Made by a program: the position numbers and the translations under genes. DNA of 64,000 nucleotides from a virus (lineage: Duplodnaviria > Caudoviricetes), in the IMG/VR virus record IMGVR_UViG_3300033177_000258; one strand, 5' to 3'. Shown one piece after another: positions 28,677 through 60,323 of the stretch (position 1 is its first letter; every line of letters starts with the position of its first letter). The notes under the pieces were generated by a model, which saw nothing but the letters and a program-made list of their open reading frames with translations, was not told the origin of the DNA and searched no databases.

Positions 28677-29801
28677 GTGCGTACTGACATCTTAATCCCC
28701 TGCGCCGCATACCACCGCGAGCGCTTCCTCAAGGCTGTGCCCCTGTGGAACGAAGTCGCTCAGAGCAAGCTGGTGGGGCGCATCCTCGTCGTCTGCCAGG
28801 GCTGGTACCCCGTGGAAGACCAGCTCGGCAAAGTGGACGCCCTCATTGACGTTCCATCTGACAAGTGGCAGCCCAGCGTTGCCCGCAACGCCGGCCTCTC
28901 TGCACTCGAATCCGAGCTGGTGCTGTATTGTGACGCGGATGTGGTCATGCTCCCCGACACCGTGCGGGCGCACGTCTACGCACACAAGGGGTCCGAGGAG
29001 CCCAGGCTGACGGCCAACCTGCACAAAGACATCGCCACTGATGCCCCCCTGCCTTTTACTGTCGAGGAATTGGAAGCGTTGAACGTTCCCGACATGTGGC
29101 GCTCGATGCGCGTTGACTGGCGCGTGGCCATACTCGAAGAGTGCCGCTGGCTGGAGTACCCGCCTTCAGTGCCTCTCTGGTCGCTTGGCGGGGGCAGTGG
29201 TATCTGCCTTCCCCGCGAGTGGGCCCAGGCGGTCGGTGGCTGGAACGAAGACTTCCAGGGGTGGGGCTACGAAGACGCCGAGTTCTGGTACCGCTGCCAG
29301 AAGAGCGGCCTCAAGTTCGAGTTCATCAAGCAGTACGCCTACCACCAGCAGCACGAGGTGGACATCCCGCGCCGCATCGCCGACTCGCAGGAAAACTCGC
29401 AGATGTTCACAATCGAGCGCGACAGTTGCAAGGTCACCTACATCGCTGATGCCGTGACGGATGACCTGGCCCAGCTTGTGCTCGACTCCGAGTACAATGC
29501 CGAAGTCATCGGCGCCTTCCCGCTCAACATGGCCAGCCCCATGGGCATCCGCTCCGTCCCGGCCGCTGCCGACCAGCCGGCCGAAGCGTTCCGCGCCTTC
29601 GCGCGCGGTTGGTACCTGTGCGATATGCGGGGCGACCGGCCCGAGCCGTCCAGTTCCGACTGGCACAGTCTCACCCACTGCGGTAGTCACACCGTCCAGC
29701 TAGGCGGGTTGGACTACATCCCCAAGTCTTCAACCGGGTTCGTGCAGCACCGGGTATCTGGAGGAGCTCATAATGTCGAGACAAGTAGCGGTCCTTACTG
29801 A
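28677..29801 (+). CDS. Glycosyltransferase family 2 (GT7C-like C-terminus)
   Basis: ARNAGL, CDADV, GGWNEDFQGWGYED. Confidence 0.88.
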   Translation: MRTDILIPCAAYHRERFLKAVPLWNEVAQSKLVGRILVVCQGWYPVEDQLGKVDALIDVPSDKWQPSVARNAGLSALESELVLYCDADVVMLPDTVRAHVYAHKGSEEPRLTANLHKDIATDAPLPFTVEELEALNVPDMWRSMRVDWRVAILEECRWLEYPPSVPLWSLGGGSGICLPREWAQAVGGWNEDFQGWGYEDAEFWYRCQKSGLKFEFIKQYAYHQQHEVDIPRRIADSQENSQMFTIERDSCKVTYIADAVTDDLAQLVLDSEYNAEVIGAFPLNMASPMGIRSVPAAADQPAEAFRAFARGWYLCDMRGDRPEPSSSDWHSLTHCGSHTVQLGGLDYIPKSSTGFVQHRVSGGAHNVETSSGPY

Positions 29802-29810
29802 CGCTGCCAC

Positions 29811-30998
29811 CTAAGCGGCTTCTTGCTTGCGCGAGCTATGTGCCGGGCGTCCACCGGAACTACCTGCAACCAAGGCCACAGGATACTTGTAGCGGATGAC
29901 GTTGGGCACGTCACAGCCTGGAGCAAGCTCGCCGCGCATACCGATGCAGCGGATGTTGGTAGAGCCTACCACGTCGCGTGGGGCGCCAAAACCGCATTGC
30001 TTGCAGCGGTAGGTCCGCTGGCACTTGTTCCTGGTTCCGCAAACGGGACACGTTTGGGAACTGTACGCCTCGTCTACGGTGATTGCTCCCGCAGTCTTGT
30101 AGTCGAGTTGCGTAATGAGCCTGCGGTTGCAGGCGGTTGAGACTTGTTGGGCAGTCTTTCGAGACATCTTCTGTGCTGCGTCATTGAACGGTTCGCCGAC
30201 GTAGCACTTTGCTCCGGGGAAAGTGTCAACGACCACCCGAGTGGCTTTGTGGGTGATGTCGTTGATGCGGTTCTCCGACTTCTTTAGCAGCTTGTGTTTG
30301 CGGCGCTGGAGCCGGCCGTACTGACGGGAACCCCGGTGGCAATTCGACAGCTTGCTGCGGAGAGTTGCGAGACGTTTGGCGCGCCACTGAACCGTCGCCT
30401 TGGCTTCCCGACCCGAGACGAGTACGGTTTTTTCTCCGTCTGTGGCAGCAAGGAGAGTATTGATGCCGAGGTCAACGCCGATGGTGGAGCCGGTCGGGAT
30501 GGCGGGCTCCTCGCATTGACAAACTAGGATGATTGCACCGTAGGCGAGTCTAGCTTCCATGAGTCGGCCGGGCAGTTCGAATGGGAGACGGACAAATAGG
30601 TAACCAGAATCCCCGTGAGGGAGACGGACACTTCCATTTCTGACCACGGCACCCTGATTGGTGTAGGGGATGTCTCTGAACTCTGGTTTGTGATTGGGGT
30701 AGGATGACCCCAGGCCTCCCCTTCTTTTTGCTGTTGTGGACTTCAGGGCTTCGCAGAACTCGCGGATGATTTCCTGTACTGACTGGCTGTGGAGATTGGG
30801 GTAACGCCCCTTTGCCCACCTTCTCCAGCGCGCCTCAGAAGGCCACTTTAGTTGGCGACGACGGATACGCAGATGGCGCTCCACCAAGTCAGACCATAGG
30901 CGGCCGGAATCGCTTCGGGCAGCCGTAAAGATAGTCCACTCAGAACGAGAGTGCGGGAGCCAGTCGAGTTTTACAGACCTGTAAACTATGGGCATCAC
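29811..30998 (-). CDS. tnpB: TnpB, cassette E3 (second family)
   Basis: GVDLG, YVGEP, RDVVGSTNI, CPVC/CKQC; omega end ...GCAGCGTCA at about 29799. Confidence 0.9.
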   Translation of the reverse strand: MMPIVYRSVKLDWLPHSRSEWTIFTAARSDSGRLWSDLVERHLRIRRRQLKWPSEARWRRWAKGRYPNLHSQSVQEIIREFCEALKSTTAKRRGGLGSSYPNHKPEFRDIPYTNQGAVVRNGSVRLPHGDSGYLFVRLPFELPGRLMEARLAYGAIILVCQCEEPAIPTGSTIGVDLGINTLLAATDGEKTVLVSGREAKATVQWRAKRLATLRSKLSNCHRGSRQYGRLQRRKHKLLKKSENRINDITHKATRVVVDTFPGAKCYVGEPFNDAAQKMSRKTAQQVSTACNRRLITQLDYKTAGAITVDEAYSSQTCPVCGTRNKCQRTYRCKQCGFGAPRDVVGSTNIRCIGMRGELAPGCDVPNVIRYKYPVALVAGSSGGRPAHSSRKQEAA

Positions 30999-31030
30999 TG
31001 GAAGTATTTCGTGCTACAGGGAGTAGCGAC

Positions 31031-32080
31031 ATGAGACAGGCAGCCGTATTGACCAGCGTACCCATCCATCTGCTCGGGGAGGGGCAGCGTATCCCGCAGA
31101 TGCTGGGGCGCCTAAGCGAGCTGCCCGGCGTCGAGACGCACGTTGTGGAGACGCACATCTACGTGCCCGGCGCCGGCGCCGTCTACACCGGGGAGAAGGT
31201 CAAGGAGGCTCTCGACACCATCTTGCGTCAGGGCCCCACGGTCATCATCATCGCCCAGCCAGTGGCAGCGGCGCTACCCGCATTGTTGGAAGCGCAGAAG
31301 CGCGGGGCTAAACTGGTGTACGACCGCTTCGAGAGCTGGAAGGACTTCCCCGGCAACGAGACCTGGTACCGCCCCCAGCAAGAGACCGCCATCATTGTGG
31401 CCAGCGATGGCCTGGTCTCGACCTACCGCGACTCGCTCTTCGATTCCTATGACCGCCCCAAGCTGCTGCTGCCGAACGCCGCCAGCGACGCGCCACTGTG
31501 GCCCCAGACACAACTCAAGGGCTCGCGCGGCCGCAGTGTGGCTCTGGCCAGCTCGGCCGTGTACGTGGGGAGCATGGACCCCCGCTACATAGACATGGAC
31601 GCCATGCGCCATGTGGGAGAGGCGCGCCCGAGCGCCTTCTACGGCAAGCCTCCGGGCCAGCGCATCATGGAGGACGGGATGTCGCCGGTGCAGTACGGCG
31701 CCTCGGGCTGGCTGGTGGGTTGGGTGAACCATGTCAACCTGAGCTTCGCGCTCGCCTCCGGCGACGGCAAGTACAATGACCGGCGCAAGGTGGGTTTGCT
31801 CCCGTTCCTCGACATCCCGTTGACCGAGAAGGTCTCCCCCATCAAGTGGTGGGAGTACCTGCTGGCCGGCGTTCGCCCGGTCACCATGCACCTGAGCCAG
31901 GTCGCGGAAATGCCCTTCGGCGTCTACACCGACGACATCAACGCGTTCCTGTACGCGGCCATCACCGCTGCCCCGTTCTCCGATGAGGAAGCTCGCGAGG
32001 CTTCCAACTGGGTGCGCGAACACCACATGTGGGCGCACCGCGCCAAGGTTCTCAACGCCTGGATGGAGGGCTTGCTCTGA
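31031..32080 (+). CDS. GT-B (GT4-like) glycosyltransferase
   Basis: KLVYD, LLPNA, YVGSM, GLLPF...SPIK.WEYL.AG, H.W.HR. Confidence 0.75.
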   Translation: MRQAAVLTSVPIHLLGEGQRIPQMLGRLSELPGVETHVVETHIYVPGAGAVYTGEKVKEALDTILRQGPTVIIIAQPVAAALPALLEAQKRGAKLVYDRFESWKDFPGNETWYRPQQETAIIVASDGLVSTYRDSLFDSYDRPKLLLPNAASDAPLWPQTQLKGSRGRSVALASSAVYVGSMDPRYIDMDAMRHVGEARPSAFYGKPPGQRIMEDGMSPVQYGASGWLVGWVNHVNLSFALASGDGKYNDRRKVGLLPFLDIPLTEKVSPIKWWEYLLAGVRPVTMHLSQVAEMPFGVYTDDINAFLYAAITAAPFSDEEAREASNWVREHHMWAHRAKVLNAWMEGLL

Positions 32081-32922
32081 TGGTACCCGGCCGCCTCGTC
32101 ATCTTGGTGCCCATAGCGGAGCACAAGACCTACGCGCTCCCTTCGCTTCTCGATTCCATCCTGAAGCTCACCCTGCCGCACGACCACTGCTTCTTCTTCC
32201 ATGTGAACAGGTCCAAGCCGGCCTTCGCTGAGCATCTACGGTTGGAGCTCCTGCGCCGGGACATCCCCTTCGCCATGGTGTTCAACGACAAGGACTACGC
32301 GTCGGAGACTACCCTGCTGCGGGAACGGAACGGCAACGTCCTGGACGACCCTGGGGCCATAGCTGCTCTGTTGGCTATCGCGGAGGCGCGTGAAGCTCTC
32401 CTGCGCGGTGCTCTCATGGTCAAGCCCGAGCGCATCTTCTGGTTGGACGCCGACATGGTGCCTCCCCCCGATACGGTATCCCGCCTGATGGCCCACAACA
32501 AGGATGTGGTGTCGGCGAAGTGCTTCATGCGCCGGGCCGACATCCCCACCGTTTGTGCTTGGCGGTACGACCCCGCACTGTTGTTGGCCGGCCGCAACCA
32601 GGGGCGGGGCCCCATCAACCTGACACTTGAAGAACTGGGTGGCAAGCCCGGTGTAACTTGGCTGCGCGGCAAAACCGACTTGCTGCAACTGACCCAGCGC
32701 TTCATTCCTGAAGACAGCACCGGCCTTCAGGAGGTTGATGGCGTCGGGTTGGCGGCAACGCTCTGGAGTGCAGAAGCAGCCAAGAAGGTCATTTTCCACT
32801 TGCAGAATCTCACGAGTGATGATATGCTGGCTTCATCGCTTCTGCAAGAAGCCGGTTTCCCCATCTTCGTTGATATGGACCTCCACGTGTTGCACATGGA
32901 TTCTGCGCGCGGGGCGGTGTAG
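32080..32922 (+). CDS. GT-A (GT2-like) glycosyltransferase
   Basis: LDADM DxD motif, EVDGVGLA, DD, H.LH. Confidence 0.7.
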   Translation: MVPGRLVILVPIAEHKTYALPSLLDSILKLTLPHDHCFFFHVNRSKPAFAEHLRLELLRRDIPFAMVFNDKDYASETTLLRERNGNVLDDPGAIAALLAIAEAREALLRGALMVKPERIFWLDADMVPPPDTVSRLMAHNKDVVSAKCFMRRADIPTVCAWRYDPALLLAGRNQGRGPINLTLEELGGKPGVTWLRGKTDLLQLTQRFIPEDSTGLQEVDGVGLAATLWSAEAAKKVIFHLQNLTSDDMLASSLLQEAGFPIFVDMDLHVLHMDSARGAV

Positions 32923-32977
32923 ATGGGCATAACCTTTTTTCGTCAATGTATGTCACAGCATGGAATACTTCATGGTG

Positions 32978-34126
32978 ATGAAGACTACACTCAAGCTGAA
33001 GCTGCTCACAAGCCCGGACCAGCACCAGGCCCTACTCACTACTCTGGAGGTCTTCAATGCCGCCTGTAACTACCTGGCAGAAGTGGCATTCGACAACCAT
33101 ACCGCGAACAAGCTGAAGCTGCAGAAGCTGGCCTACCATGAGACCCGAGAGCGCTTCATGCTCCCGGCCCAACTGGCCGTTCGCGCAATCGCTAAGGTTT
33201 GCGAAGCCTACAAGCGGGACAAGTCAACCCGACCAACCTTCCGGCCGCATGGGGCAGCCATCTACGACCAGCGGGTCCTCTCGTTCAAGGGTCTGGACAC
33301 CGTGTCCATACTCTCCCTCTCCGGCCGGCTCAAGATTCCAATCGTAGTCCACGGTTACGCCCACGACCGAATCACAGCCTACGGCATGCGCGGCCAGGCC
33401 GACCTGCTCTACCAGCGCGGCACGTTCTACCTGTGTGTCGTGGTTGAGCTTCCCGAACCTCCTCCTGGTGAGACTAAGGACTGGCTCGGCGTAGACCTCG
33501 GCATGGTCAACATAGCCACCGACAGCGACGGAGAGAACTTCAGTGGTGCCGAGGTCAACGGCCTCCGTGCCCGGCACAATGCCCTTCGGTCCAAACTCCA
33601 GGGCAAGGGCACGAAGAGCGCCCGTCGTCGTCTCCGTCAACAGAGCGGACGGGAAAACCGCTTCGCCCGAGACGTAAATCACAGAATCTCCAAGAAGCTA
33701 GTCGCGAAAGCCAAAGGCACCGAGCGTGGCATTTCCGTAGAAGACCTGACGGGAATCCGCGAGCGGGTAACGGTTCGCAAGGCACAGCGTCGCGCGCTAC
33801 ATTCTTGGGGCTTCTACCAGTTGGCCTCGTTTGTCGAGTACAAGGCTGCTTTGGCTGGTGTGCCGTTTGTCAAAGTAGACCCCAGGAATACCAGTCGAAC
33901 ATGTCCTTGGTGCGGTCATGTCGCGAAGGCGAACCGTCCTACTCGCGACCAATTCCTCTGTGTGTCGTGCGGTCTCGCTGGGCCGGCCGACCACTTCGCT
34001 GCGGTCGAAATCGGCCGCAGGGCTGCAGTCAATCAGCCGAACGCGGCAGCAGTCATATCGCTAGCTGCGAGCCCTAAGGATTGCAACAGGGTAGTTGACA
34101 AAACCAGCCAAAAACCTTCTGGGTGA
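32978..34126 (+). CDS. tnpB: TnpB, cassette E4 (full length)
   Basis: N-terminal HTH region, GVDLG, SVEDL, ADHF, zinc finger; omega end GTAGTTGAC at 34091-34099. Confidence 0.93.
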   Translation: MKTTLKLKLLTSPDQHQALLTTLEVFNAACNYLAEVAFDNHTANKLKLQKLAYHETRERFMLPAQLAVRAIAKVCEAYKRDKSTRPTFRPHGAAIYDQRVLSFKGLDTVSILSLSGRLKIPIVVHGYAHDRITAYGMRGQADLLYQRGTFYLCVVVELPEPPPGETKDWLGVDLGMVNIATDSDGENFSGAEVNGLRARHNALRSKLQGKGTKSARRRLRQQSGRENRFARDVNHRISKKLVAKAKGTERGISVEDLTGIRERVTVRKAQRRALHSWGFYQLASFVEYKAALAGVPFVKVDPRNTSRTCPWCGHVAKANRPTRDQFLCVSCGLAGPADHFAAVEIGRRAAVNQPNAAAVISLAASPKDCNRVVDKTSQKPSG

Positions 34127-34134
34127 GAACGGTC

Positions 34135-37100
34135 ATGAGTAGTTCGCCGAATCACGGGTTTGTGAACCTGCACGTCCATTCCGAGTACAGCGCGATGGAC
34201 GGCGTAAGTACGTGCAAAGAGTTGGTGAAGCGCGTCGGGGTGCTCGGGCAGACGGCCCTGGCTCTCACGGACCATGACGGTCTGTACGGCGCGGTTGACA
34301 TCTGCGAGAGCGCCTTGGCGAAGGATGTCAAGCCCATCGTTGGTTGCGAACTGCGGTTCGTGCCCGACATCTCCGAGAAGGTGCGGGGCTGGCACATCAC
34401 TGCTCTGGCGCTGACGGAGCAGGGGTACCGCAACCTCTGCGACTTGGTGACGGAAAGCTACCGCCCCAAGAACTTCTTCTACAGCCCCCGCATCCCTCTG
34501 CAGTCGCTTCTGGAACGACAGGAGGGTTTGGCGCTGCTCTCTGGCTGCTGGTTCGGGTACCCGGCCCAGACCTACGAGCAGACCGTCCACGGCGGCCGCG
34601 ACCGGATGGCTCAATTCCAGGAAATCACCAGCGCTCTGCAGTCGGCCTACGGCGAGCGCTTCCTCTTCGAGCTCTTCACTGGCGACTACGCCCATTCTCG
34701 CGAGGCCATCACGTTCCTGCTCGACGCCTCGGCCAAGTGGGGCATCAAGACTGTTGCGACCAACGACTCCCACTTCGCCGCCCCCGAGGACTGGCGCAAG
34801 GCGGAGTTGATACGTCGCATCCGCATGAAGGGCAAGGACGAAGAGGGCAATGCCATGCCCCAGCACCAGTACCTCATGGGTGAGCAGGAAATGCGCACAC
34901 TGCTCCCAGAGGAAGCGGTGGACAACACGGTGATGGTGGCCGGCTGGGCGGAGTACGCCTTGGACCTGGCCATTGACCGAGAGGGCCACGTGCTGCTGGA
35001 CAAAGTGCTGCAGCGCCTGCCGAAGCTGCCTCTGGCTGAGGGACAGACGGAGTGGGGCGCATTCATTGAGGCCATCAAGCAGGGGTGGCAGAAGAGGATG
35101 GGCTACCTCACCGAGGAGCAGCGGCCCATCTACCACGAACGTCTACTGCGGGAAATCGAGGTCTTCAAAGAGACCGGCCTGGCCGGCTATATGCTCATTG
35201 TGGCCGCGATGACCGATTACTGCGCGGAAAACGGCATCCTGCGGGGCCCCGGCCGAGGCTCGGCGTCAGGGTCCCTGTGCTCCTTCCTGCTGGGTATCAC
35301 CGACCTTGACCCCATAGCCTCCGGCTTGTTCTTCGAGCGGTTCCTGGACGCCCGGCGCGCCAGCATGCCAGACATTGATGTGGACTACGACCCGGACGAC
35401 CGGGAGCGTGTGTTCGCCTATCTGCAGCGGACGTATGGTGTTGACCACGTGGCGCGCATCCTGACCTTCCAGCGGTTGGTGGGTAGCAGCGCGGTCAAAG
35501 ACGTGGGCTCCATGATGGGGGTCAGCTACGACGAGCTCAACAAGCTCACTTCGGCCATCGAGGACTTCGATGAACTGGATGTGAGCGAAGGCGCCCCGCC
35601 CTCCGACAAGAACAAGGAGGCGCTCGGGGTCATCGCTCAGAACCCGGACCTCGCAGCGGTGGTGCAGCAGGCCAAGCTGATTTCTGCCGACGAGAAGACC
35701 AAGACCAAAGGGGTCATCCGTCAGGTAGGTGCCCATGCGGCCGGCGTGGTTATCGCCCCCGGCCCGGTGCGCTACCTCTCTCCCACCCAGCTCACCAAGC
35801 GCGATAGCAACCTGGAAGTCTTCCAGTGGGACATGGGCGCAGTAGACAAGATGGGTCTGCTGAAGATTGACGTTCTCAACGTCAGGACCCTCGGCATGGC
35901 GCGCGACATCATCAGCCTGGTCAAGAAGCGGCATGGGGTGGAGCTCGACTGGTACTCTATCCCAGTCGAAGACCCCGCCGCCTACGAAATGGCCGGGCGC
36001 GGTCGCACTACCGCCATCTTCCAGCTTGAGAAGCGCACGGCCCAGGAGCCACTGAAGAAGATTAAGCCCAACTCGCTGTTGGACTTGGCTGTCGTTCTGG
36101 CGCTCAACCGTCCGGGCCCCATGGAGTACATGGAAGAGTACGCCATCTGCAAGAACGACCCGTCGCAGATAACCTACGACCTGCGCGAATGGGAGTCGGT
36201 GCTGGCCGAGACTTACGGCATCATGGTCTACCAGGAGCAGGTCATCCAAGCCCTGCAGGCGCTGGGATTCGACTTCACCGAAGCCGACGACTTCCGCCGA
36301 GGGATGGCCAAGAAGAAGCAGGACCTCATCGAGGCGGCCAAACTCAGGGTCGTGCCCAAGATAATCGAGCGTGGGTACTCCGAAGCTCACGCTGAAGCCG
36401 TCTGGGCGAAGATAGCCAAGTTCGGCGGCTACGCGTTCAACAAAGCGCATGCTGTGGCGTATGGCGCGATTTCCGCCCGCATGCTGTACCTGAAGACCCA
36501 CTACCCTGCGGAGTACATGGCAGCCGCTCTGACCTCCCAGGACAAAGAGGAGTTCTTCACCAGATACATCGAGGAAGTCTCGCGCCTGGGTCTGCGCTTG
36601 CTGCCTCCCGACATCAACGAGGCCAGCGAGAGCTTCACTCCAAGCGACGGCGCTGTGCGGTTCGGTTTCTCTCAGATTTCCCACATCGGCGCCGTCGCCA
36701 AGGCCATAGTGGCGGCCCGCCTGGTCCGCCCCCGAGGATGGCGCGGGCCCGAGCCGGAGAACGGGGTGTACCCGTACCAAGACCCACTAGACTTCTGCCG
36801 GCGCCTGAAAGACCACGGCATGAACCGGCGCCAGTTGGATGCTCTGGTCTGGGCTGGGGCGTTCGACGCCTTCTGCCCTTCGCGGGCTTTCCTGGCCGAC
36901 AAGGTTGACCAACTCATGGGCATGGCGAAAGCCGGCCGCACCTCAGTGGAGGCTTTGGTGACGTGGGAGTCTCTGTTGGCGGACGCGGAACTGCGCCCCG
37001 ATGACGAGGACCTGCTGGCCGACAAGGAGCAGGAGTTGTTGCGCTGCTCGCCGCGTCGCATGGCGCAGGACATCAGTTTGCGTGAGCGCATAGGAAAGGG

Positions 37101-37386
37101 TACCGCGCCCCTGTCCCAGCTCGAACCGCAAGCCAAGGGCGTCAAAGTCTGCGGGCGCATCCTCGAAATCGGTAAGCGCTCTGGCAGGAAGAACGACTAT
37201 GCCTACCTGCAGTTGAACGACGGGACGGCCATCATGCGATGCCTGGCGTTCAAAGAAGAAGTCATCCAGCAGCTATCGGACGAAATAGGTCCTCAGGCAG
37301 CAGTGGTGCTACAGGGAGACGTGAGTGATGACGGGACGGCGTTCTTCATTCGCAAAATAGTGCAGTCTGACGCCGGCGCAAGTTAG
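34135..37386 (+). CDS. dnaE: DNA polymerase III alpha subunit
   Basis: PHP HVHSEYS/TDH/TNDSH, GRGSASGS, MPDIDVD, GLLKID, YAFNKAHA, OB fold. Confidence 0.96.
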   Translation: MSSSPNHGFVNLHVHSEYSAMDGVSTCKELVKRVGVLGQTALALTDHDGLYGAVDICESALAKDVKPIVGCELRFVPDISEKVRGWHITALALTEQGYRNLCDLVTESYRPKNFFYSPRIPLQSLLERQEGLALLSGCWFGYPAQTYEQTVHGGRDRMAQFQEITSALQSAYGERFLFELFTGDYAHSREAITFLLDASAKWGIKTVATNDSHFAAPEDWRKAELIRRIRMKGKDEEGNAMPQHQYLMGEQEMRTLLPEEAVDNTVMVAGWAEYALDLAIDREGHVLLDKVLQRLPKLPLAEGQTEWGAFIEAIKQGWQKRMGYLTEEQRPIYHERLLREIEVFKETGLAGYMLIVAAMTDYCAENGILRGPGRGSASGSLCSFLLGITDLDPIASGLFFERFLDARRASMPDIDVDYDPDDRERVFAYLQRTYGVDHVARILTFQRLVGSSAVKDVGSMMGVSYDELNKLTSAIEDFDELDVSEGAPPSDKNKEALGVIAQNPDLAAVVQQAKLISADEKTKTKGVIRQVGAHAAGVVIAPGPVRYLSPTQLTKRDSNLEVFQWDMGAVDKMGLLKIDVLNVRTLGMARDIISLVKKRHGVELDWYSIPVEDPAAYEMAGRGRTTAIFQLEKRTAQEPLKKIKPNSLLDLAVVLALNRPGPMEYMEEYAICKNDPSQITYDLREWESVLAETYGIMVYQEQVIQALQALGFDFTEADDFRRGMAKKKQDLIEAAKLRVVPKIIERGYSEAHAEAVWAKIAKFGGYAFNKAHAVAYGAISARMLYLKTHYPAEYMAAALTSQDKEEFFTRYIEEVSRLGLRLLPPDINEASESFTPSDGAVRFGFSQISHIGAVAKAIVAARLVRPRGWRGPEPENGVYPYQDPLDFCRRLKDHGMNRRQLDALVWAGAFDAFCPSRAFLADKVDQLMGMAKAGRTSVEALVTWESLLADAELRPDDEDLLADKEQELLRCSPRRMAQDISLRERIGKGTAPLSQLEPQAKGVKVCGRILEIGKRSGRKNDYAYLQLNDGTAIMRCLAFKEEVIQQLSDEIGPQAAVVLQGDVSDDGTAFFIRKIVQSDAGAS

Positions 37387-37445
37387 AGAAGCGCGGAATA
37401 CTTCTATGCGAGCAAGTAGAACATAGTCTCATATATGAACTTCCA

Positions 37446-38555
37446 ATGCAACGCACTCTCTACATCCAATTGGTAGTTTCCCCCGAACAAGGCAGAGCCA
37501 TCGGCGTCACGATGGCTCTGTATACGGCTTGCTTCAACGCGGCCACTCGGTTCGGTTGGGACAACCATACGGTAAATGGAGTGGAGCTACATAAGGGCAC
37601 CTATGCTACCCTTCGCGCCCAGTACCCCGAGCTTCCCTCCCAACTTGTCTGCTCTTCTCGCGTCAAAGCGACAGAGTCACTCAAGTCAGTCCGCGCCCGT
37701 CTCGCCAAGGGCAAGAAAGCATCCTGCCCGCTCTCCCGTCTTCAGTCGGTACGCTACGACGCCCGTTCCTACACCATTTCCCTCACCGAAGGCTGGGCCA
37801 CTCTCGCCACGGTCGCCGGCCGTCAGCGCGTCACATTCGACGCCGGCTTCACCAGGCTCCAGACCTGGAAGCCCACCTCGGCCGAACTCGTCTACCGTCG
37901 CAACCAGTTCTGGCTCCACGTCGTTGTAGAGTCCCCCGCCCCCGTCTACACCGCAACCGGCGAGGTTGTCGGTGTAGACTTGGGCATTGTCCGCCCGGCC
38001 GTCACCTCCGAAGCCCAGTTCTTCGGTGAGCGGCGCTGGCGCAACGTCGAACAGCGGTACTTCCGTCTTCGCAGAGCCTTGCAGGCAAAGGCCACTCGCT
38101 CCGCCCGTCGTAAGCTACGTAAGCTCTCGGGCAAGCAGGCTAGGTTTCGCCGCGACTGCGACCACGTACTGTCCCGCCGCCTTGTAGAGTCCGTTGACCC
38201 AGGAGCCGTACTCGTCTTCGAGAACCTGACTGGAATCCGTGACCGCGCTGACTTCGGCCGGCATGGCAACCGTCGTCTCCACGGGTGGAGCTTCGCCCAA
38301 CTGTTCGCGTTCACGGCCTACAAAGCCGAGGAAGGCGGCAAGACGACGGCGACGGTAGACCCGCGCGGGACGAGCCAGAAATGCTCGCGGTGCGGACACG
38401 TCGCGCGGGGCAACCGCGTCAGCCAGTCAGAGTTCCGGTGCCAGAAGTGCGGCTTTCGAATCAACGCTGACCTCAACGCGGGACGAAACGTGAAGGGGAA
38501 GTACCTGGTCCGAGAGGGCAGCGCCGTCTCGGGCGGGCCGCGTCAACCGGCCTAA
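37446..38555 (+). CDS. tnpB: TnpB, cassette E5 (third family, full length)
   Basis: GVDLG, VFENL, NADLNAGRNV, CSRC/CQKC; omega end GTAGTTGAA at 38595-38603. Confidence 0.93.
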   Translation: MQRTLYIQLVVSPEQGRAIGVTMALYTACFNAATRFGWDNHTVNGVELHKGTYATLRAQYPELPSQLVCSSRVKATESLKSVRARLAKGKKASCPLSRLQSVRYDARSYTISLTEGWATLATVAGRQRVTFDAGFTRLQTWKPTSAELVYRRNQFWLHVVVESPAPVYTATGEVVGVDLGIVRPAVTSEAQFFGERRWRNVEQRYFRLRRALQAKATRSARRKLRKLSGKQARFRRDCDHVLSRRLVESVDPGAVLVFENLTGIRDRADFGRHGNRRLHGWSFAQLFAFTAYKAEEGGKTTATVDPRGTSQKCSRCGHVARGNRVSQSEFRCQKCGFRINADLNAGRNVKGKYLVREGSAVSGGPRQPA

Positions 38556-38632
38556 TGCAGCGTGTTGTTTGCGGCTGCAAGCTACCTTTGGGTAGTAGTT
38601 GAATCGTAAGATTGTCACATTGAGGAGCTGGT

Positions 38633-39346
38633 ATGCGTCTTTCTATCCTAACTCCAACAATCAGGGGTAGCCGCTGCGATGCGCTCTCTCGGGTAGTTGG
38701 CGACCTGCGCCAACATTGGGATGTGACTTGGTGGCTCTGCCCCAATGCTCCTGGATGGGACGCCCGGCCGCCGCTGTTTGCTCGGGTTGTGCCCCTGGTG
38801 TTCTCTGGCCCGGTGCCGGTTCTCTCTCGCATCAACCAGGCGCGCGAACTGCTGAGGGTAGCGGCATCGTCGTGGCCGGCCGACGTGGTTGTGTGGCTGG
38901 ACGATGACATGACACCCACGACCGAGCAGCTACACCAGCTTGCGTCCACGGCCATCCGTTCCGATACGCGAGGGCTTCTCGTCTCGCCTGTGATGCGGAA
39001 CCGACATAGCACCGATGACTACACCTGTGCCTGGGTCTTCACCCAGACTGCCGTGGAAGTTCGTGGAGCGGACCTGGACTTGTCCATCCACGGCCTGTCT
39101 TTCCTCCCGTCATCCGTATCCCGTGAAGATAGGGGATTCGTATGGGCCCACGGAGTGGGACTCGGTTGTGTCGCTCACCCCTGGGCCTTCTTGCTTGAGT
39201 TCGCCTTCCCTGCCGCCGAGGTGGCTGACGACGAGTGGTTGTCGCGCGCGTTCGCTGCGAGCGGGCGCACTGGCATCATTGTTGACTACACGCTTGACGT
39301 GGGGCACATTGATGCAGATAAGGAGCACTCATGCCCAGAAGTCTAA
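38633..39346 (+). CDS. GT-A-like glycosyltransferase
   Basis: WLDDDM, GVGLGC, DD, paralogous to 32080. Confidence 0.65.
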   Translation: MRLSILTPTIRGSRCDALSRVVGDLRQHWDVTWWLCPNAPGWDARPPLFARVVPLVFSGPVPVLSRINQARELLRVAASSWPADVVVWLDDDMTPTTEQLHQLASTAIRSDTRGLLVSPVMRNRHSTDDYTCAWVFTQTAVEVRGADLDLSIHGLSFLPSSVSREDRGFVWAHGVGLGCVAHPWAFLLEFAFPAAEVADDEWLSRAFAASGRTGIIVDYTLDVGHIDADKEHSCPEV

Positions 39347-52475: not shown

Positions 52476-52910
52476 ATGGTTGACGTGACCGTCATCAAAG
52501 AGGGCTGGGACGGAGTAGGCAACTACTGGCCGAAAGAGGCGCTCGTCGCCATGGCCAAGCGCTACACGGCCTGGCGAGAAGAGAACGCCCGAGCGGGTAA
52601 ACCTACCGCCATGCCAATCCGGGTCGGCGGCCCCAACGGCCCAGCCCTCGGTCACGTTGACAGCATGTGGTACGACATCTCGTGGAACGCTCTGCGTGCC
52701 AGCATAGACTGCAGCACCGCCCGGCTGCCCGATGGATGGCAGGGGCCAACGCCTGAAGACATGCTCTCGACGGCTCCCGTAATCGCACTGTACCGGGTCG
52801 TGGATAAGGAAGACTTTGGGGGTCCCGGCTCTGGCTACAAGGTGAAGGAAGGGCACGTAGCGCGGCTCTTCATCAAGCAGATGCCGCAAGGAGTGAAGAT
52901 GCAGCAATAG
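52476..52910 (+). CDS. Hypothetical protein
   Basis: ORF in operon. Confidence 0.6.
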   Translation: MVDVTVIKEGWDGVGNYWPKEALVAMAKRYTAWREENARAGKPTAMPIRVGGPNGPALGHVDSMWYDISWNALRASIDCSTARLPDGWQGPTPEDMLSTAPVIALYRVVDKEDFGGPGSGYKVKEGHVARLFIKQMPQGVKMQQ

Positions 52911-52921
52911 GCTATTGCCTG

Positions 52922-53914
52922 TCACAGGCAACTCGCAGCTAGCCCAAGTACAGCAGCCGCCGCGTATGGCTGATTGACTGCAGCCCTGCGGCCGATTTCG
53001 ACCGCAGCGAAGTGGTCGGCTGGCCCAGCGAGACCGCACGACACACAGAGGAATTGGTCGCGAGTAGGACGGTTCGCCTTCGCGACATGACCGCACCCAG
53101 GACATGTTCGACTGGTATTCCTGGGGTCTACCTTGACAAACGGCACACCAGCCAAAGCAGCCTTGTACTCTACAAACGAGGCCAACTGGTAGAAGCCCCT
53201 GGAGACTTCATGGTTGACGTGGCGCCCGAAACGACTCTCCCGTCCGCTCTGTTGCTTCAGCCGGCGCGTGGCCGACCTTGTGCCTTTGCTCTGGAGCCTG
53301 GCTCGCAATGACGCATGACGGCGGCGCAAGCCGTTGACTTCGGCCCCGCTGAAGTTCTCGCCGTCGCTGTCGGTAGTTATGTTGACGACACCCATGTCTA
53401 CGCCGAGCCAATCCTTGGGTTGCTTTTGCGGGGGTTCGGGAATGTCAACGACTACGCAGAGGTAGAATTGCCCATCACGGAGCACGAGGTCGGCTTGGCC
53501 TCTGACCCCGTAAGCGGTAATCCGCTCATGGGCATAGCCATATACGACGACCGGCATCTTGAGCCGTCCCGAGACCGACAAGATAGACACGGTATCAAGC
53601 CCTTTGAACGAGAGGTTGCGTTGGTCGTATACCACTGAGCCCCGCGCTCTGAAAGTCGGTTGCTTCTTCTTGTCGCGCTTGTAGACTTCGCAGACCTTGG
53701 CAATGGCGCGAACAGCCAACTGGGCGGGTAGAGAGAACCGCTCTCGGGCCCCCTGGTAAGTAAGACGGTGTACGACATTGCGGTTGGCGGAGCCGTTCTC
53801 ATAGGCTACGCTGGAAATCCAATTACACGCCGTATTGAACGACTCCATGGTATCAACCAGGGCGTGGTGCTGGTCGGAGGAAGGCGCGAGTTTGAGCTGC
53901 AGTGTGGTGTTCAT
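52922..53914 (-). pseudogene. tnpB: TnpB cassette E6 with in-frame deletion of RuvC-II and no TTGAC end
   Basis: Relative to E4, 39 aa including VEDL are replaced by one residue (VNHEVSRGFYQ). Confidence 0.85.
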
Positions 53915-53981: not shown

Positions 53982-54611
53982 ATGACCGAGTCTGATACTA
54001 ACCGCGAAATCATCCAGTCCATCTGCGACATCCCCCGCTCCTGGGCTTGGAAGATACCAGATACGTCGCCTATGAACCGCATGACCCAGCGTTACGTGCC
54101 CGCCCGAGCTTTCGACATCTCGGCTTGCATCCACGGTCAGTTCTATGCCATTGAAGGCAAGCTCATTAAGACGCTCGGGGGCTTGTCTACCAATGGCATT
54201 ACCGAGTTCGAGAAGCGTTCTTTGGGTGGCGTAACGCGTGCGGGTGGTTCAGCCCTTCTGGCTATCGCCTACCACGTGCAAAAAGCCACCCCTCAGCAGA
54301 TGCGCAAACACGAACTCGCTTCCCCCAAGGTGCGGCAGCTCTTCTTGGTGCCCTGGGATAGGTGGGTCGAGTTGGAAGCTGCGCTGCCCGAGGGCGTCGG
54401 CACGGTTGCCCGTCCAGACATTGTAGCTGCAGGGGTGAGCGTGGAATGGCTGGGTAAAGGGCGCTGGGACATTGAAAAGGCTCTCTTCGACCTGCATGAA
54501 CGCTCTGACATTATGGTCTGGCCAGTAGGCATTGGCGATGAAAACTGGGTCCCGTTTGACGCCAGTCGCTTTGGGAGAGAGACAGGTGACGCTGAGCATG
54601 CAGAGGGTTAG
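53982..54611 (+). CDS. RecU-like Holliday junction resolvase
   Basis: KIPD, FDISACIHGQFYAIEGK. Confidence 0.7.
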   Translation: MTESDTNREIIQSICDIPRSWAWKIPDTSPMNRMTQRYVPARAFDISACIHGQFYAIEGKLIKTLGGLSTNGITEFEKRSLGGVTRAGGSALLAIAYHVQKATPQQMRKHELASPKVRQLFLVPWDRWVELEAALPEGVGTVARPDIVAAGVSVEWLGKGRWDIEKALFDLHERSDIMVWPVGIGDENWVPFDASRFGRETGDAEHAEG

Positions 54612-55548: not shown

Positions 55549-55858
55549 CGGTCTGCAAACCGAGCTCGAAATGCTCAAGGTCCGGGCCAAGTCCTGGGCC
55601 GCCAAACTGGAAGACGAGTTCAGTGCTGAGAAGGCACGGGCCATGATGAAGGCCCGGAACGAAGAGGGACTCAAGAACGCAGAAGAGCGGCAAGCCTGGG
55701 TTTCAGCCCAGGTCCAGCCGACGCAGGAGCGCCTGACCCGAGCCCAGTCCTGGCTCAACCTCTACTCGGGCGCCTGCAAGGTCATTGAGACGCGCGTAAC
55801 CCTGCTTGCTTTGCAGGCATCTGGTGTGCGCTCGAACGCTTCGCTTGGAGGAGCATGA
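55529..55858 (+). CDS. Small helical protein upstream of recombinase (UvsY-like?)
   Basis: Coiled coil; overlaps both neighbours. Confidence 0.5.
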   Translation: MTSSQLDGLQTELEMLKVRAKSWAAKLEDEFSAEKARAMMKARNEEGLKNAEERQAWVSAQVQPTQERLTRAQSWLNLYSGACKVIETRVTLLALQASGVRSNASLGGA

Positions 55859-57042
55859 TGGCTCGAAAGTCAAAGAAAACAGAAGAAGAAGTACCAGTGG
55901 TTGAAGAGCCGAAAGAAGGAGCGCGCCCGTTTGCGGACGCGGCCCAGACCTACACGGTCGGTTCAATGGATGACGACGACTTCGTGACGTTCTGCTTCCT
56001 GAGCACCGGCGTGCCGGCTGTGGACCTCATCCTCAAGGGCGGCTACCCCTGCGGCGTGTTCTGCCAGGTCTACGGCGAAGACCGCTCAGGGAAGACGCTC
56101 ATGTCGTTGAGAGCCGCCCGCGAGGCCCTGCTGATGGACCCGGAGGCGTGGGTGCTCTACATTGACAGCGAGCACAGCATCACTCGGGAGCTGTGCATCC
56201 TGAACGACTTCGAGCCCGACCAGCTCAAGCGTCTCTACGTGGTGCACACGGCGGTCCTGGAGGATACCCTGCGCTGGATGAAGACGGCGCTGACGGGTGA
56301 CTACTCGGACTTCCCCGAAGGCGCGCGGCCCCCGGTCAAAGCTCTGGTTGAGCAGCTCAAGCGCCCGCCCGCCCTCATCGTCTGGGACAGCGTGGCGACC
56401 GCCATCACGTCCAACGACTACGAAGCTGACCCCGGCAAGCAGGTGGGCTACTCCGGCGTTGCCAAGGTCATGCCCCGCCGCCTGCCGGCCATCGCGGCCT
56501 ACGCCTTCCACGCCAAGGTCCCCATCCTGCTGACGAACCAGGCGCGCGAGAGCCTGGACATCTTCGACAAGGAAATGAAGTTCTCGGGCGGCAAGCATCT
56601 GCGCCACACGCACTTCACCCGCCTCCTGCTGGACCGCTATCTGGACAAGAAGACCAACATCTCGACCCACAAGGTCCAGGTGTCCAAGAGCAAGCTTGTC
56701 GGCGACGGCATCCAGACGGAGTTCGTGTTCGCGCCCGAGACCGGGTTCGACTACATTGACGCCATCATCAACGGGGTGGCTCTGCCGCTCGGCATCGTCA
56801 CCAAGGCCGGCGCCTACTACCAGTGGCGCGGTCAGTCTTTCTACCTCAAGGATGCGCTCACGAAGCTCGGCGCGCAGATAAAGGACCTGGTAGCGGACAT
56901 CCGCGCCGCCAGCGGCATCCCCCTGCTGGGCGGCCGCAGTCTCGACAGGTTCATTGAGAAGCGCTTGGCTTCCATCAAGGAGGCGGAAGACGGTGGTGGC
57001 GACAACGAGTTCGCCGAAGAGCCAGGAGAGGGCGCCGAGTAG
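55855..57042 (+). CDS. RecA/UvsX-like recombinase
   Basis: STG..AVD...GGYP, GEDRSGKT, YIDSEH, IVWDSV, TNQ.R, SGG, KAGAYY. Confidence 0.9.
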   Translation: MMARKSKKTEEEVPVVEEPKEGARPFADAAQTYTVGSMDDDDFVTFCFLSTGVPAVDLILKGGYPCGVFCQVYGEDRSGKTLMSLRAAREALLMDPEAWVLYIDSEHSITRELCILNDFEPDQLKRLYVVHTAVLEDTLRWMKTALTGDYSDFPEGARPPVKALVEQLKRPPALIVWDSVATAITSNDYEADPGKQVGYSGVAKVMPRRLPAIAAYAFHAKVPILLTNQARESLDIFDKEMKFSGGKHLRHTHFTRLLLDRYLDKKTNISTHKVQVSKSKLVGDGIQTEFVFAPETGFDYIDAIINGVALPLGIVTKAGAYYQWRGQSFYLKDALTKLGAQIKDLVADIRAASGIPLLGGRSLDRFIEKRLASIKEAEDGGGDNEFAEEPGEGAE

Positions 57043-57304
57043 AGGGCTGAAGCCCCACAAGACGCTTCGCTTCTACCTTTGGCTTGTACAGCAGGGTAGG
57101 TGCATCTGGTGCAAGCGCAATCACCCGTTCGGGACGACGACGTTGGAACACATCCATCCCAAAAGCGAACAAGGGGCACTCGGGGTAAGCAACCTGGCGG
57201 TGGCTTGCCCCGAGTGCAACAGTTCGCGCCGACAACAGCCTTCATCGCAGAAAGGTTCTCCGAATGTCTCAACGTCAACAGCTCCTGGATGCAACCAGGG
57301 CTAA
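56954..57304 (+). CDS. HNH endonuclease (start uncertain)
   Basis: CIWC, EHIHPKS..G, NLAVACPECN. Confidence 0.75.
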   Translation: MRSAWLPSRRRKTVVATTSSPKSQERAPSRGLKPHKTLRFYLWLVQQGRCIWCKRNHPFGTTTLEHIHPKSEQGALGVSNLAVACPECNSSRRQQPSSQKGSPNVSTSTAPGCNQG

Positions 57305-58553
57305 GGTTTTCAACTGCAAGTTGTGCCCGCTTCGCGAGCATGCGAAGCAGACCGTGTGGGGGGAAGGCCCTATTGACGCTCCGGTCTTCATCATCGGTGA
57401 AGCGCCGGGAGCGGACGAAGACGAGCAGGGGCGCCCGTTCGTGGGCCGTGCTGGCAAGGTGCTCGATGACGCGCTGAAGACAGCGGGGCTCGACCGCCAG
57501 GCACTCTATGTGGACAATGTGCTGTCATGTCGTCCTCCGAACAACAGCTTCCCGGATGACCCGACTCCGGTCCAGTCTTGCCTGCCCTACCTCAACGACA
57601 ATCTCGCCGCCGTGCTGCCCGAAGTAGCTGTGGTGCTGGGCGCCAACGCCTACAAGTCCATCTTCGACGGCCGCCCGCAGATGATGATGAGCAAGACGCG
57701 GGGCACCGTGTTCATGCACCAGTTCTTCGCCAACGGCCGACCGCTGGCGCTGCCGATGGTGCTGAGCTACCACCCCTCATACGTCGCACGCCGGGGCGGC
57801 TCAGACACGCGCGAGTACCGCGAGCTGGTCGAAGACATCAAGTTTGCTGCAACGCTAGCGGAGACCAGGCGCCAAGTCCCGGAAATCTTCGCCGGTGTCG
57901 TTACCTCGCTGCCGGAGCCCGTTCAGGCGGTTACGCGCGCGGCGCTGGAGCGGGCCCCCGATACCTTCACCAAAGCCCCCGCGTCATCATCCGGCAAGCA
58001 TCACCCCGCATGGGCCAACGAAGATGGCGGCCTGCTGTCGCATAGCCTGGGCGTGTCCTACATCGCCGGGGAAATCGCCGCCCGGATGGGCGAGGAGCAG
58101 TTCGTTACCATCTTGCGCGCGGCCGGCCTGCTGCACGACCTCATTAAGTGGGGTTACGGGAGCCAGGGGTACAAGAGCGACTACAAGCATCACGAGGCAA
58201 TATCTTCTGGTTTCGTGGCAGCGGTTGCTGACCGGATGGGCCTGTACGAAGACGGCAACGTCTTGCGTCTACTCTGCGCCATCGGCACCCACGCGGGCCA
58301 GTGGGGCGACAACCGCCCGCGCATCTGGTATGAGTTGGCGCTGCATCTCGGCGACTTGCTCATGTCCAACAAGAACATGCCCGACCCCCTGCACATTTCG
58401 GTAGTCACACAGGACGCCAAAGAGGCGCTCACTGAGCTCTCGCGCATCCAGGACTACAGCTCCATACCGCGCTCTGCTGAAGCGATAGATGCTGCGCGCG
58501 CCGTCGTTACCGCCCTGCGGCCGGGCTTTGCTCGTTCGCTACTCAGAAAGTGA
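57264..58553 (+). CDS. Family-4 uracil-DNA glycosylase fused to an HD-domain hydrolase
   Basis: CKLCPL, GEAPG..ED..GRPFVG, CRPP.N, YHPS; then HH...GGLLSHS, LLHDLIK. Confidence 0.88.
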   Translation: MSQRQQLLDATRAKVFNCKLCPLREHAKQTVWGEGPIDAPVFIIGEAPGADEDEQGRPFVGRAGKVLDDALKTAGLDRQALYVDNVLSCRPPNNSFPDDPTPVQSCLPYLNDNLAAVLPEVAVVLGANAYKSIFDGRPQMMMSKTRGTVFMHQFFANGRPLALPMVLSYHPSYVARRGGSDTREYRELVEDIKFAATLAETRRQVPEIFAGVVTSLPEPVQAVTRAALERAPDTFTKAPASSSGKHHPAWANEDGGLLSHSLGVSYIAGEIAARMGEEQFVTILRAAGLLHDLIKWGYGSQGYKSDYKHHEAISSGFVAAVADRMGLYEDGNVLRLLCAIGTHAGQWGDNRPRIWYELALHLGDLLMSNKNMPDPLHISVVTQDAKEALTELSRIQDYSSIPRSAEAIDAARAVVTALRPGFARSLLRK

Positions 58554-58564
58554 GGGCTTGACCT

Positions 58565-59185
58565 ATGCAGTACAGCGGCACCCCCATCATGGCCCTGGAG
58601 GCCCCGAGCCAAGAGCGCCTGATTGAGGCGTTCTGGTCATCCGGCTTGTGTGCGCTTCAGGTGGTGAACCCGAAAGTCTTTGCGCGCCCTTTGCCGGCGC
58701 AAGAGGGCGAGCACAACGCCGTGCACGACGCCGCGTCGGCGGCCCTGCGGTCCAGCACATTGTCTCGCTACGTCGCGCTGGACATGACCCATAACGTAGA
58801 GCCGGAGACGATGGCGGCTGCCGTCGCGCTTTGCATGGTCACGCAGGCCGAGCTCCTCGTGGTCTCCGAGTACGGCCACTTCCCCATGCTCTTCCGGCAA
58901 CTGCTGCAGGTGAATGAAGTCGCCGACGCCGACGCACTCATTGCACTCGCTGGTCAGCTACTAGGTAAGGACCACGAAGAGCGACGCATGAACATCCCCC
59001 TGATGGCGACGCTCTCCCTGCCGGTTGAGGGCGCGGGCGGCGTATCGCTCGGGGACGCGGACAAGGTGATGGAGCTCCTGCGTCTCGCGTTCAACAACGC
59101 GGCGAACATCAAGCCGGCCCCGGACCACATCATCATCCACGCCATGGCCAGTGTGGTCATGCCGAAACCCCTGTTGGAGGGCTAA
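58565..59185 (+). CDS. Hypothetical protein
   Basis: ORF in operon. Confidence 0.6.
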   Translation: MQYSGTPIMALEAPSQERLIEAFWSSGLCALQVVNPKVFARPLPAQEGEHNAVHDAASAALRSSTLSRYVALDMTHNVEPETMAAAVALCMVTQAELLVVSEYGHFPMLFRQLLQVNEVADADALIALAGQLLGKDHEERRMNIPLMATLSLPVEGAGGVSLGDADKVMELLRLAFNNAANIKPAPDHIIIHAMASVVMPKPLLEG

Positions 59186-59186
59186 C

Positions 59187-60014
59187 ATGGAACTGCACGT
59201 CTTTGGCACCCAAGAAACCATCCACCTCTCGTACAGCGAGATTCCGTGGGATGTAGACACGAAGCAGCGCACCGACCTGGACCCCGGCACCGGCGAACCC
59301 ATGATGGAGTTCGTGCTCGACGCCGATGGCAAGATGAAGCGAGACGAAAACCTCAACCCGCTGATGCGGGCGGCGGACGGTAGCGAAGTCCCGGTGAAGA
59401 CCGACGTGTGGGTCGAGAACCGCGCTTTCACCGTCCCCTTCGGCCCCTGCTGCATCAACCAGGAAGTCAAGCAGACGCAGTACGCCGACCGCCCCGACGT
59501 GCAGGTCTGTCGCGGCACCTGCTGCCGCCAGCCGGTCTCAGTGAAGGTTAGCACCATCGCGGCCATCCTCAAGCACATGGATGGCATCCTCAAGCACATG
59601 CCCCCGGCGAACGCGAAGCTGGCTTCGCTGGCGAGCCCGTTCCGCCACGAGTCCATCCGCCCGATGCCCGATGGCTCCTGTATCTTCTGGAACCCGGTCA
59701 ACGGCCAGTGCGCGCTGTACAACTACGCCCAGGCCAACGGCCTGGATGTGAACCGCCTGCGGCCCATCCCATGCTCGCTGTTCCCCCTGCAGATTCAGGC
59801 CGGCTGGCTCGACCAGACCCCGCGCTACTTCGCGATGTTCATTGACCCCATCGTGATGCAGCAGCACAACATCGCCTGCCCCACGGCCGGCAATGGTGCC
59901 TGCAAGCCGGCGTACCTGAGCCTGAAGCGCGAGTTCGACACCGCCTTCGGGGAAGGCTTCTGGGAGGTCATGGTAGACGTGTATGAGCGGCACTTCAGAC
60001 CAAAGCACGAGTAG
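59187..60014 (+). CDS. Cys-cluster protein (DUF3109/YkgJ-like)
   Basis: C.GTCC, CIF, CAL, RP..CSLFP, FG..F. Confidence 0.6.
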   Translation: MELHVFGTQETIHLSYSEIPWDVDTKQRTDLDPGTGEPMMEFVLDADGKMKRDENLNPLMRAADGSEVPVKTDVWVENRAFTVPFGPCCINQEVKQTQYADRPDVQVCRGTCCRQPVSVKVSTIAAILKHMDGILKHMPPANAKLASLASPFRHESIRPMPDGSCIFWNPVNGQCALYNYAQANGLDVNRLRPIPCSLFPLQIQAGWLDQTPRYFAMFIDPIVMQQHNIACPTAGNGACKPAYLSLKREFDTAFGEGFWEVMVDVYERHFRPKHE

Positions 60015-60041
60015 GCTCACGGCGCTTTTCAGGTATATTCC

Positions 60042-60323
60042 GCAAGACGACGGCGACGGTAGACCCGCGCGGGACGAGTCAGAAGTGCTCGCGGTGTGGG
60101 CACGTTGCGCGGGGCAACCGCGTCAGCCAGTCAGAGTTCCAGTGCCAGAAGTGCGGCTTTCGAATCAACGCTGACCTCAACGCGGGACGGAATGTGAAGG
60201 GGAAGTACCTGGTCCGAGAGGGCAGCGCCGTCTCGGGCGGGCCGCGTCAACCGGCCTAATGCAGCGTGTTGTTTGCGGCTGCAAGCTGCCTTCGGGTAGT
60301 GGTTGACGGTGGATGTTTACTAC
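60042..60323 (+). ncRNA. Cassette E7: tnpB-less omega-RNA unit (E5 family) with guide from 60308
   Basis: 266 bp nearly identical to 38338-38603, ends TTGAC at 60307; TATATT immediately upstream. Confidence 0.8.

Follow-up and report, generated by a model that had tools for sequence, protein, structure and literature searches.

TnpB cassettes in a Caudoviricetes phage whose guide positions carry displaced gene ends: a candidate RNA-guided homing arrangement

The stretch analysed here, called the window below, comprises 64,000 nucleotides (nt) of the Caudoviricetes virus record IMGVR_UViG_3300033177_000258. Its G+C content is 62 %, and an identical sequence is contained in the metagenomic contig L016 (195,484 bp). 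The window genes represent a phage replication and nucleotide-metabolism module with DnaB, DnaE, a RecA-like protein, UDG-HD, NrdD/NrdG, methylases and glycosyltransferases. Using tblastn and self-blastn, we identified seven TnpB-related pieces in the window, E1 to E7. E1, E4 and E6 form group A together with the fragment E2, which contains no tnpB gene, E5 and the gene-less fragment E7 form group B, and E3 represents a family of its own. The pieces and the features adjoining them are listed here. The guide position denotes the bases following the right end of a cassette, the scaffold is the predicted constant part of the guide RNA, the patch is the re-coded gene end on the resident side, TAM stands for transposon-associated motif and RBS for ribosome-binding site. 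Contigs used for comparison carry L numbers.

E1, 2-787 (+): 3′ part of a group A tnpB, its 5′ side cut off by the window start; right end stops at 771 (GTAGTTGAC)
E1 guide position, 772-787 (+): natural RBS and start of gene 786
E2, 28298-28584 (-): gene-less group A guide-RNA scaffold (28314-28584)
E2 guide position, 28298-28313 (-): 3′ end of the upstream 161-aa gene
E3 guide and displaced ancestral gene start, 29760-29799 (-): RBS, ATG and 8 codons of the 349-aa gene
E3 tnpB, 29811-30998 (-): own family, RuvC D-E-D intact; motif GAAATACTTC (31001-31010) just upstream of the start
E3 patch, 31019-31054 (+): new RBS, ATG and re-coded RQAAVLT codons, rebuilding the 5′ end of gene 31031-32080
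E4 unit, 32913-34164 (+): diverged last codons of an Anp1-like gene (32913-32916), motif 32962-32971, tnpB 32978-34126
E4 right end and guide, (+): right end stops at 34099; guide 34100-34112, reverse complement of the DnaE start in L014
E4 patch, 34113-34164 (+): new RBS, MSSSPNH, re-coded GFV
E5 TAM and patch, 37345-37393 (+): TTCAT, re-coded RKIV, new short DnaE tail QSDAGAS and stop
E5 cassette, 37395-38603 (+): motif GGAATACTTC; group B tnpB 37446-38555, RuvC intact; tail hairpin CTACCTTTGGGTAG
E5 guide and ancestral DnaE tail, 38604-38670 (+): guide 38604-38619, continuing in frame into the displaced ...NSNNQG and stop
E6, 52891-53914 (-): group A tnpB (52922-53914) with an internal deletion removing the RuvC Glu
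E6 guide position, 52891-52906 (-): end of the upstream gene
E7 TAM and patch b1, 59968-60014 (+): TCAT, then the complete re-coded 3′ end (VDVYERHFRPKHE and stop) of a 287-aa gene (b1, 59972-60014)
E7 scaffold and guide, 60042-60320 (+): gene-less, group B; right end stops at 60307; guide 60308-60320, GGTGGATGTTTAC
E7 patch b2, 60346-60381 (+): re-coded 5′ start of a 145-aa gene

Pfam searches recovered OrfB_IS605 and zinc-ribbon (Cas12f1-like_TNB) domains in E3, E4 and E5, and a PDB search matched Cas12f/TnpB structures (E 1e-24). A preliminary description of the window had stated that E1, E3, E4 and E5 keep all three acidic RuvC residues and that tnpA is absent. Both statements hold, as the D-E-D triad is present in all four proteins and no TnpA domain was found among the 40 open reading frames scanned in the window. 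E6 is without the Glu and its internal deletion spans ~38 residues. The ratio of nonsynonymous to synonymous substitution rates (dN/dS) between the tnpB copies is 0.15-0.24, and the intact tnpB genes encode predicted enzymes under purifying selection. The tnpB of E4 has lost its normal stop codon and continues across the hairpin of the right end and across the guide as far as the patch, which gives the protein ~25 extra residues.

Other transposon parts were also searched for. Y1_Tnp or serine recombinase domains were not found among the same 40 open reading frames, and no left-end hairpin was present at the window cassettes, in which only 32-97 nt separate the tnpB start from the neighbouring gene or the TAM. 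The hairpin CTRCCTTYGGGTAG occurs only at the right ends of E5 and E7. The right ends of groups A and B all stop at GTAGTTGAC, located after a variable hairpin, with GTTGAA in E5 (stopping at 38603, GTAGTTGAA) and a divergent sequence in E6. The right end GTAGTTGAC is common to insertion sequence (IS)-like relatives in bacteria and IMG/VR, which also possess a matching left-end hairpin, and many of them carry TCAY ~100 nt upstream of tnpB. Having neither TnpA nor a left-end hairpin, the cassettes are phage-adapted units of TnpB and predicted guide RNA that lost the transposon machinery.

A sequence motif, GRAATACTTC, is present in six copies in the window (0.07 expected), at positions 9920, 16822(-), 31001(-), 32962, 37395 and 45995. 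Three copies lie just upstream of tnpB (E3, E4 and E5) and three before ordinary phage genes; E6 carries a variant (GGGATACTTC). The cassettes have probably captured the motif as a promoter or translation signal of the phage. The guide-RNA scaffold is predicted to derive from the tnpB 3′ end and the right end, judging by the conserved right end and the extent of the fragments. The gene-less E2 and E7 keep 243-266 nt of scaffold and the flank, and the E7 scaffold shares 96 % identity with the final 265 bp of E5 (38338-38602). No family was matched in the Rfam search.

The preliminary description had also claimed that the guide positions of E3, E5 and E7 encode the same or nearly the same peptide as the phage gene across the cassette, which we could reproduce. 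The E5 guide TCGTAAGATTGTCACA and the resident DnaE end, TCGCAAAATAGTGCAG at 37350 after TTCAT, both encode RKIV. The E7 guide GGTGGATGTTTAC and the resident sequence, GGTAGACGTGTAT at 59972 after GTCAT, both encode VDVY. The TCAT described 5′ of both resident sites is therefore present, and so are the described mismatches at guide positions 4, 7, 10 and 13, to which E5 adds positions 14-16. In the case of E3, the orphan copy (29773) encodes MSRQVAVLT with its own RBS and the resident gene at 31031 encodes MRQAAVLT, so that the two starts differ by one codon indel and one amino-acid change. Across the cassettes, the resident patches show 4-7 mismatches in 16 to the guide, from position 1-4 onward, with the TAM kept. 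Synonymous changes are near saturation, with about 14/15 codons changed in the E3, E5 and E7 cases and 9/9 in b2. E4 is a further case of the same pattern with the guide inverted, and E1, E2 and E6 lie at gene boundaries, where little or no patch is needed. A match count of 9/13 alone is not significant (about 0.1 in a ~100-nt scan); the significance of the resemblance comes from the frame, the position and, above all, the cassette-free relatives. A 10-nt match to the E5 guide at 28670 was dismissed as chance.

The search of INPHARED and GenBank phages returned no close relative of the window phage, the best hits being only ~70 % DnaE matches from Streptomyces phages. The DnaE C-terminus recovered nothing, or only 29-31 % relatives, from IMG/VR and the JGI metagenomes. 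Cassette-free relatives were obtained as contigs via protein searches and exact-protein look-ups. The preliminary description had proposed to see whether the allele of such relatives reads as TAM and guide. The outcome of this comparison supports its interpretation, guide codons instead of resident codons being found at most of the discriminating positions: 4/6 for E7 (in L017 and in L006), 8/10 for E4 (L014), 7/7 for E3 (L012) and 4/7 for E5 (L004).

Regarding the E5 site, L004 and L011 (DnaE 77 % identical) are cassette-free on both sides of DnaE. The flank of the E5 right end reads in frame IRKIVTLRSWYASFYPNSNNQG up to a stop codon, and from ...TCC AAC AAT CAG GGG TAG on it runs colinear with L004 through the DnaE tail and the spacer into the next gene, so it is the displaced ancestral gene end. 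The rebuilt tail of the resident DnaE, RKIVQSDAGAS and stop, is itself homologous to a DnaE tail. At the E3 site of L011-L013, the glycosyltransferase and 349-aa genes have a 29-nt overlap. Window positions 29760-29799 are colinear with the arrangement at the glycosyltransferase 3′ end of the cassette-free L012/L013, down to the presence of the second codon. The resident gene lacks codon 2, is re-coded and starts behind a new RBS.

The E7 site could be compared at two distances. The distant L006/L007 and the close L017 share an arrangement in which the 276-aa gene and the 145-aa gene have 41 nt in common, and the window splits this ancestral overlap into b1 (59972-60014), the scaffold with the guide, and b2 (60346-60381). 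The E7 guide GGTGGATGTTTAC matches L006, a 69 %-identical relative, at 13/13 positions, and L017, which is near-identical to the window and has no E7, at 12/13; the empty sites read GGTAAT|GGTGGATGTTTAC in L006 and GGTCAT|GGTAGATGTTTAC in L017. L017 departs from the window at 3 positions over 2.6 kb on the left side of the site and at 2 positions over 620 nt on the right side, and the differences near E7 are confined to 59978-60380. Within b2, nine synonymous and two non-synonymous changes separate the window from L017 in 12 codons. In the 94 % strain L015 the same b1 is followed by the motif and a full-length tnpB, hence E7 is an internal-deletion derivative. The L015 tnpB (6146-6731, compared with window 37430-38012) is a mosaic against E5, with ~65 % identity over the first ~330 nt and ~95 % over the rest, which suggests that gene conversion may have occurred between cassettes at different loci.

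The E4 site is empty in L014, which is 99.5 % identical, has E3, and carries 21 nt in place of window 32922-34156. In reverse complement, the E4 guide AAAACCAGCCAAA is identical to the start of DnaE in L014 (TTT GGC TGG TTT T context, 13/13), and the 14-mer match has a chance probability of about 4e-6. The window DnaE start has acquired a new RBS, the new N-terminus MSSSPNH and the re-coded GFV. The order promoter, tnpB, right end, inverted remnant, patch and gene corresponds to the E3 layout with the remnant and cassette segment flipped, so the guide was kept through a rearrangement. An inversion between E2 and E4 was considered as the source of the inverted guide and rejected on gene order. 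E6 is inserted at an ancestral ATGA stop/start overlap (TCAT on the minus strand) and is absent from L006; the strain contigs at the E2 and E6 sites stop at the repeats.

These comparisons show that what seems to be a re-coded resident gene is a short rebuilt patch, which belongs to the inserted unit and keeps the gene whole, and that the ancestral gene end, now displaced, forms the putative guide. Strains that are 99.5-99.9 % identical differ in the presence of E4 and E7. Since the E7 flanks beyond the patches are ~99.9 % identical with and without E7, whole units made of patch, promoter-like motif, tnpB or scaffold, and guide come and go. Cassette deletion as the origin of the empty sites was rejected, because L017 keeps the dual-coding overlap with guide-like codons that b1 and b2 could not regenerate. 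The ancestral targets of E5, E6 and E7 have TCAT on their 5′ side, E4 has TTCAC on its resident side, and the IS-like relatives have TCAY where the left-end boundary is expected. The cassettes were originally inserted at TAM-like (TCAY) sites, the TAM itself being a putative one, inside or at the edge of phage genes. The right end reads TTGAC/TTGAA, one base off the TAM motif, so that the junction of right end and guide would not be a target, and the window contains no further sites combining TAM and guide.

We consider it probable that the cassettes serve RNA-guided intronless homing or the exclusion of competitors, in a layout like that of a synthetic home-and-rescue drive. They would behave like free-standing homing endonuclease genes with an RNA guide as the source of specificity; as the enzyme is TnpB and not a protein-recognition nuclease, the specificity would be RNA-guided. 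During mixed infection, guide-loaded TnpB would cut the TAM-flanked target in a cassette-free genome, after which repair from the cassette-bearing genome would copy the unit in, or the rival would be excluded. The carrier is proposed to be immune for two reasons: the cassette lies between the ancestral TAM and the remnant matching the guide, which now adjoins the non-TAM right end (TTGAC/TTGAA), and the patch after the TAM has its 4-7 mismatches in 16 starting on the TAM-proximal side. E2 and E7 could supply extra guides in trans to the full-length enzymes. Escape mutations would be costly, because the targets lie in essential or dual-coding sequence (DnaE ends, gene overlaps), and targeting of this kind would follow the logic of synthetic home-and-rescue drives. 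A more complete proposal seems quite possible to us, rather than probable: a natural phage RNA-guided home-and-rescue drive, in which end-stripped TnpB cassettes would home into essential or dual-coding gene ends, carrying the guide and a re-coded rescue, with dispersed gene-less scaffolds as extra guides, a transition from transposon nucleases with one guide to systems with several, and with differences of the L017 and L014 type as escape alleles of an ongoing arms race.

Several observations speak against this interpretation. Both of the closest cassette-free strains are imperfect targets, as L017 has a mismatch at guide position 4 (L017:4560-4600) and the empty E4 site of L014 reads TTAAC where TTCAC is expected (L014:2744-2764). 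These two cases are suggestive of escape alleles, or the strains may not be targets in the first place. An extra rearrangement is needed to account for the E4 guide, whose orientation is opposite to that of its target gene. No close strains without E3 or without E5 were found. A catalytically dead E6 and the fragmentary E2 and E7 are what decay would be expected to produce. The scaffold is predicted to fold no better than shuffled sequences (z-score -0.87) and shows no informative covariation. Finally, the homing interpretation does not explain where the patches come from. One possibility is illegitimate recombination with the intact gene end of a diverged relative, which would account for the missing left end and for the patch indels as well. 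Another possibility is a local duplication, re-coded under selection against self-cutting and repeat-mediated deletion. The near-saturated synonymous changes lean towards selection for re-coding. A third model, in which the patch is the recipient sequence kept up to a TnpB cut 15-21 nt from the TAM, was rejected, since both E7 b1 and the E5 patch extend over the whole displaced gene end (13 and 11 codons plus stop) and are homologous to it throughout.

The cassettes could also be decaying IS200/IS605 insertions, once mobilised by TnpA in trans, with the genes patched by illegitimate recombination with related phages and with presence and absence produced by ordinary homologous exchange, free of any nuclease bias. 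The missing left ends and the state of E2, E6 and E7 fit such a history, as does the strong mosaicism of the phage, and the indels and amino-acid changes in the patches look like those of diverged lineages. We nevertheless regard decay as unlikely. Four copies keep the triad and dN/dS remains at 0.15-0.24, the fragments hold exactly the 243-266-nt scaffold and guide instead of random pieces, the cassettes have acquired the phage promoter-like motif, the E4 guide survived an inversion, and the guides stayed ancestral while the patches changed at nearly every synonymous site.

If the cassettes were instead a domesticated weapon, TnpB and its several guides would destroy co-infecting relatives and the cassette would not be copied. 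Multiple guides on conserved essential or dual-coding sites, including those of the gene-less scaffolds, and the apparent expression from a phage motif would suit this role. However, the units occupy precisely the sites that they would target and vary in presence there between near-identical flanks, which is the footprint of homing, and for this reason we find a pure weapon rather improbable; exclusion and homing are not mutually exclusive. As for a chance resemblance of the right-end flanks to the neighbouring genes, 9/13 matches alone would be expected at about 0.1 per cassette in a ~100-nt scan, but the exact positional homology to cassette-free relatives at four sites and the 14-mer match have already refuted it, and we treat its probability as negligible.

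Under RNA-guided homing, our preferred reading, the comparison uncovers the footprint of intronless homing in an RNA-guided enzyme, and the unit itself brings along a rescue of the gene that it interrupts. If this reading holds true, it would give a reason why tnpB genes without TnpA persist in phages, show a route by which gene overlaps and essential gene ends become homing targets, and provide a natural counterpart of engineered home-and-rescue drives. It would also yield compact pairs of nuclease and guide for which natural targets and resistant alleles are already known, so that the hypothesis is directly testable in vitro.

Other elements were noticed in the window as well. LAGLIDADG inteins are present in two genes, one for a subtilase-like protease (10938-13046) and one for an 886-aa protein (60758-63415), so the phage is loaded with several kinds of homing elements. 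A minus-strand gene for a Ro60-like protein with a vWA domain adjoins tandem ~80-nt repeat units at 16878-17034 (region 14205-17040).

TnpB homing and the intronless homing of phages were both known beforehand, and the arrangement presented here would be a variant of these two kinds. In the literature we found no description of phage TnpB cassettes with rescue patches or dispersed gene-less guides. Patch-like duplications were absent from the 13 IS-like relatives with a located right end, except for a possible one in L044; as the IS-like TnpB relatives are generally without a patch, the arrangement is special to these phage copies. In L044, an IS-like sequence from IMG/VR, TTGAC and TTTCGCTTTGTCAAG stand upstream of the left end (2820-2880), and TTGAC and TTTCTTTTTGTCAAG follow the right end (4085-4130), with a 13/16 match. 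Possible origins of this sequence are a solo right end of older date or a target copy that has diverged. Gene-end displacement itself has a parallel in phage 21 and e14 in icd and in elements at tRNA 3′ ends, where the insertion displaces the gene end and the element brings a diverged copy that keeps the gene intact. Those elements use site-specific recombinases and att sites, and are not known to have a guide RNA or nuclease directed against the displaced copy.

The TnpB of IS200/IS605 elements (ISDra2) shares the protein family with the window cassettes. The scaffold at the tnpB 3′ end, the ~16-nt guide taken from the right-end flank and the TAM 5′ of the target, all features of the IS200/IS605 elements, are predicted for the window cassettes as well. 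Homing of TnpB to the empty donor site is established for transposons (PMC8612924; 10.1101/2023.03.14.532601). Unlike these transposons, the window cassettes have no TnpA and no left end, with a phage promoter-like motif instead. They are sited in coding sequence with a rebuilt gene end, they are accompanied by gene-less scaffolds with guides of their own, and their proposed target is the allele of another genome, not an excision scar. In plasmids, spread of an IS-bearing replicon over empty copies has been shown to be independent of TnpA and dependent on RuvC (PMC11870625). That drive was demonstrated experimentally with a complete IS and no rescue patch, whereas the present units belong to a phage, have no left end and are known from sequence comparison alone.

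The free-standing homing endonucleases of T-even phages (SegF, SegG, MobE; PMC13565253) are similar in that a nuclease gene is placed between conserved genes of the phage and varies in presence from one close relative to another. The same presence and absence at one site with conserved flanks is seen for E4, absent from L014, and for E7, absent from L017 and full-length in L015. Cutting of the neighbouring gene in relatives, resistance of the resident allele by substitutions and co-conversion of the flanks are expected in both. The T-even enzymes rely on protein recognition and their resident allele is merely polymorphic, whereas in the window the RNA guide would be a retained piece of the target allele and the gene end is duplicated and re-coded. 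According to a 2026 review, homing from phage to phage is still theoretical, and intronless homing, with self and non-self told apart by substitutions, is listed only for protein endonucleases (PMC13565253). The layout of the window units also resembles that of the HomeR and cleave-and-rescue drives (PMC7968924), where a nuclease and a guide are directed against an essential gene and a re-coded, resistant gene end is carried inside the drive. Those drives were engineered with Cas9 in insects, whereas the units described here are natural, use TnpB and reside in a phage, their activity being predicted from sequence.

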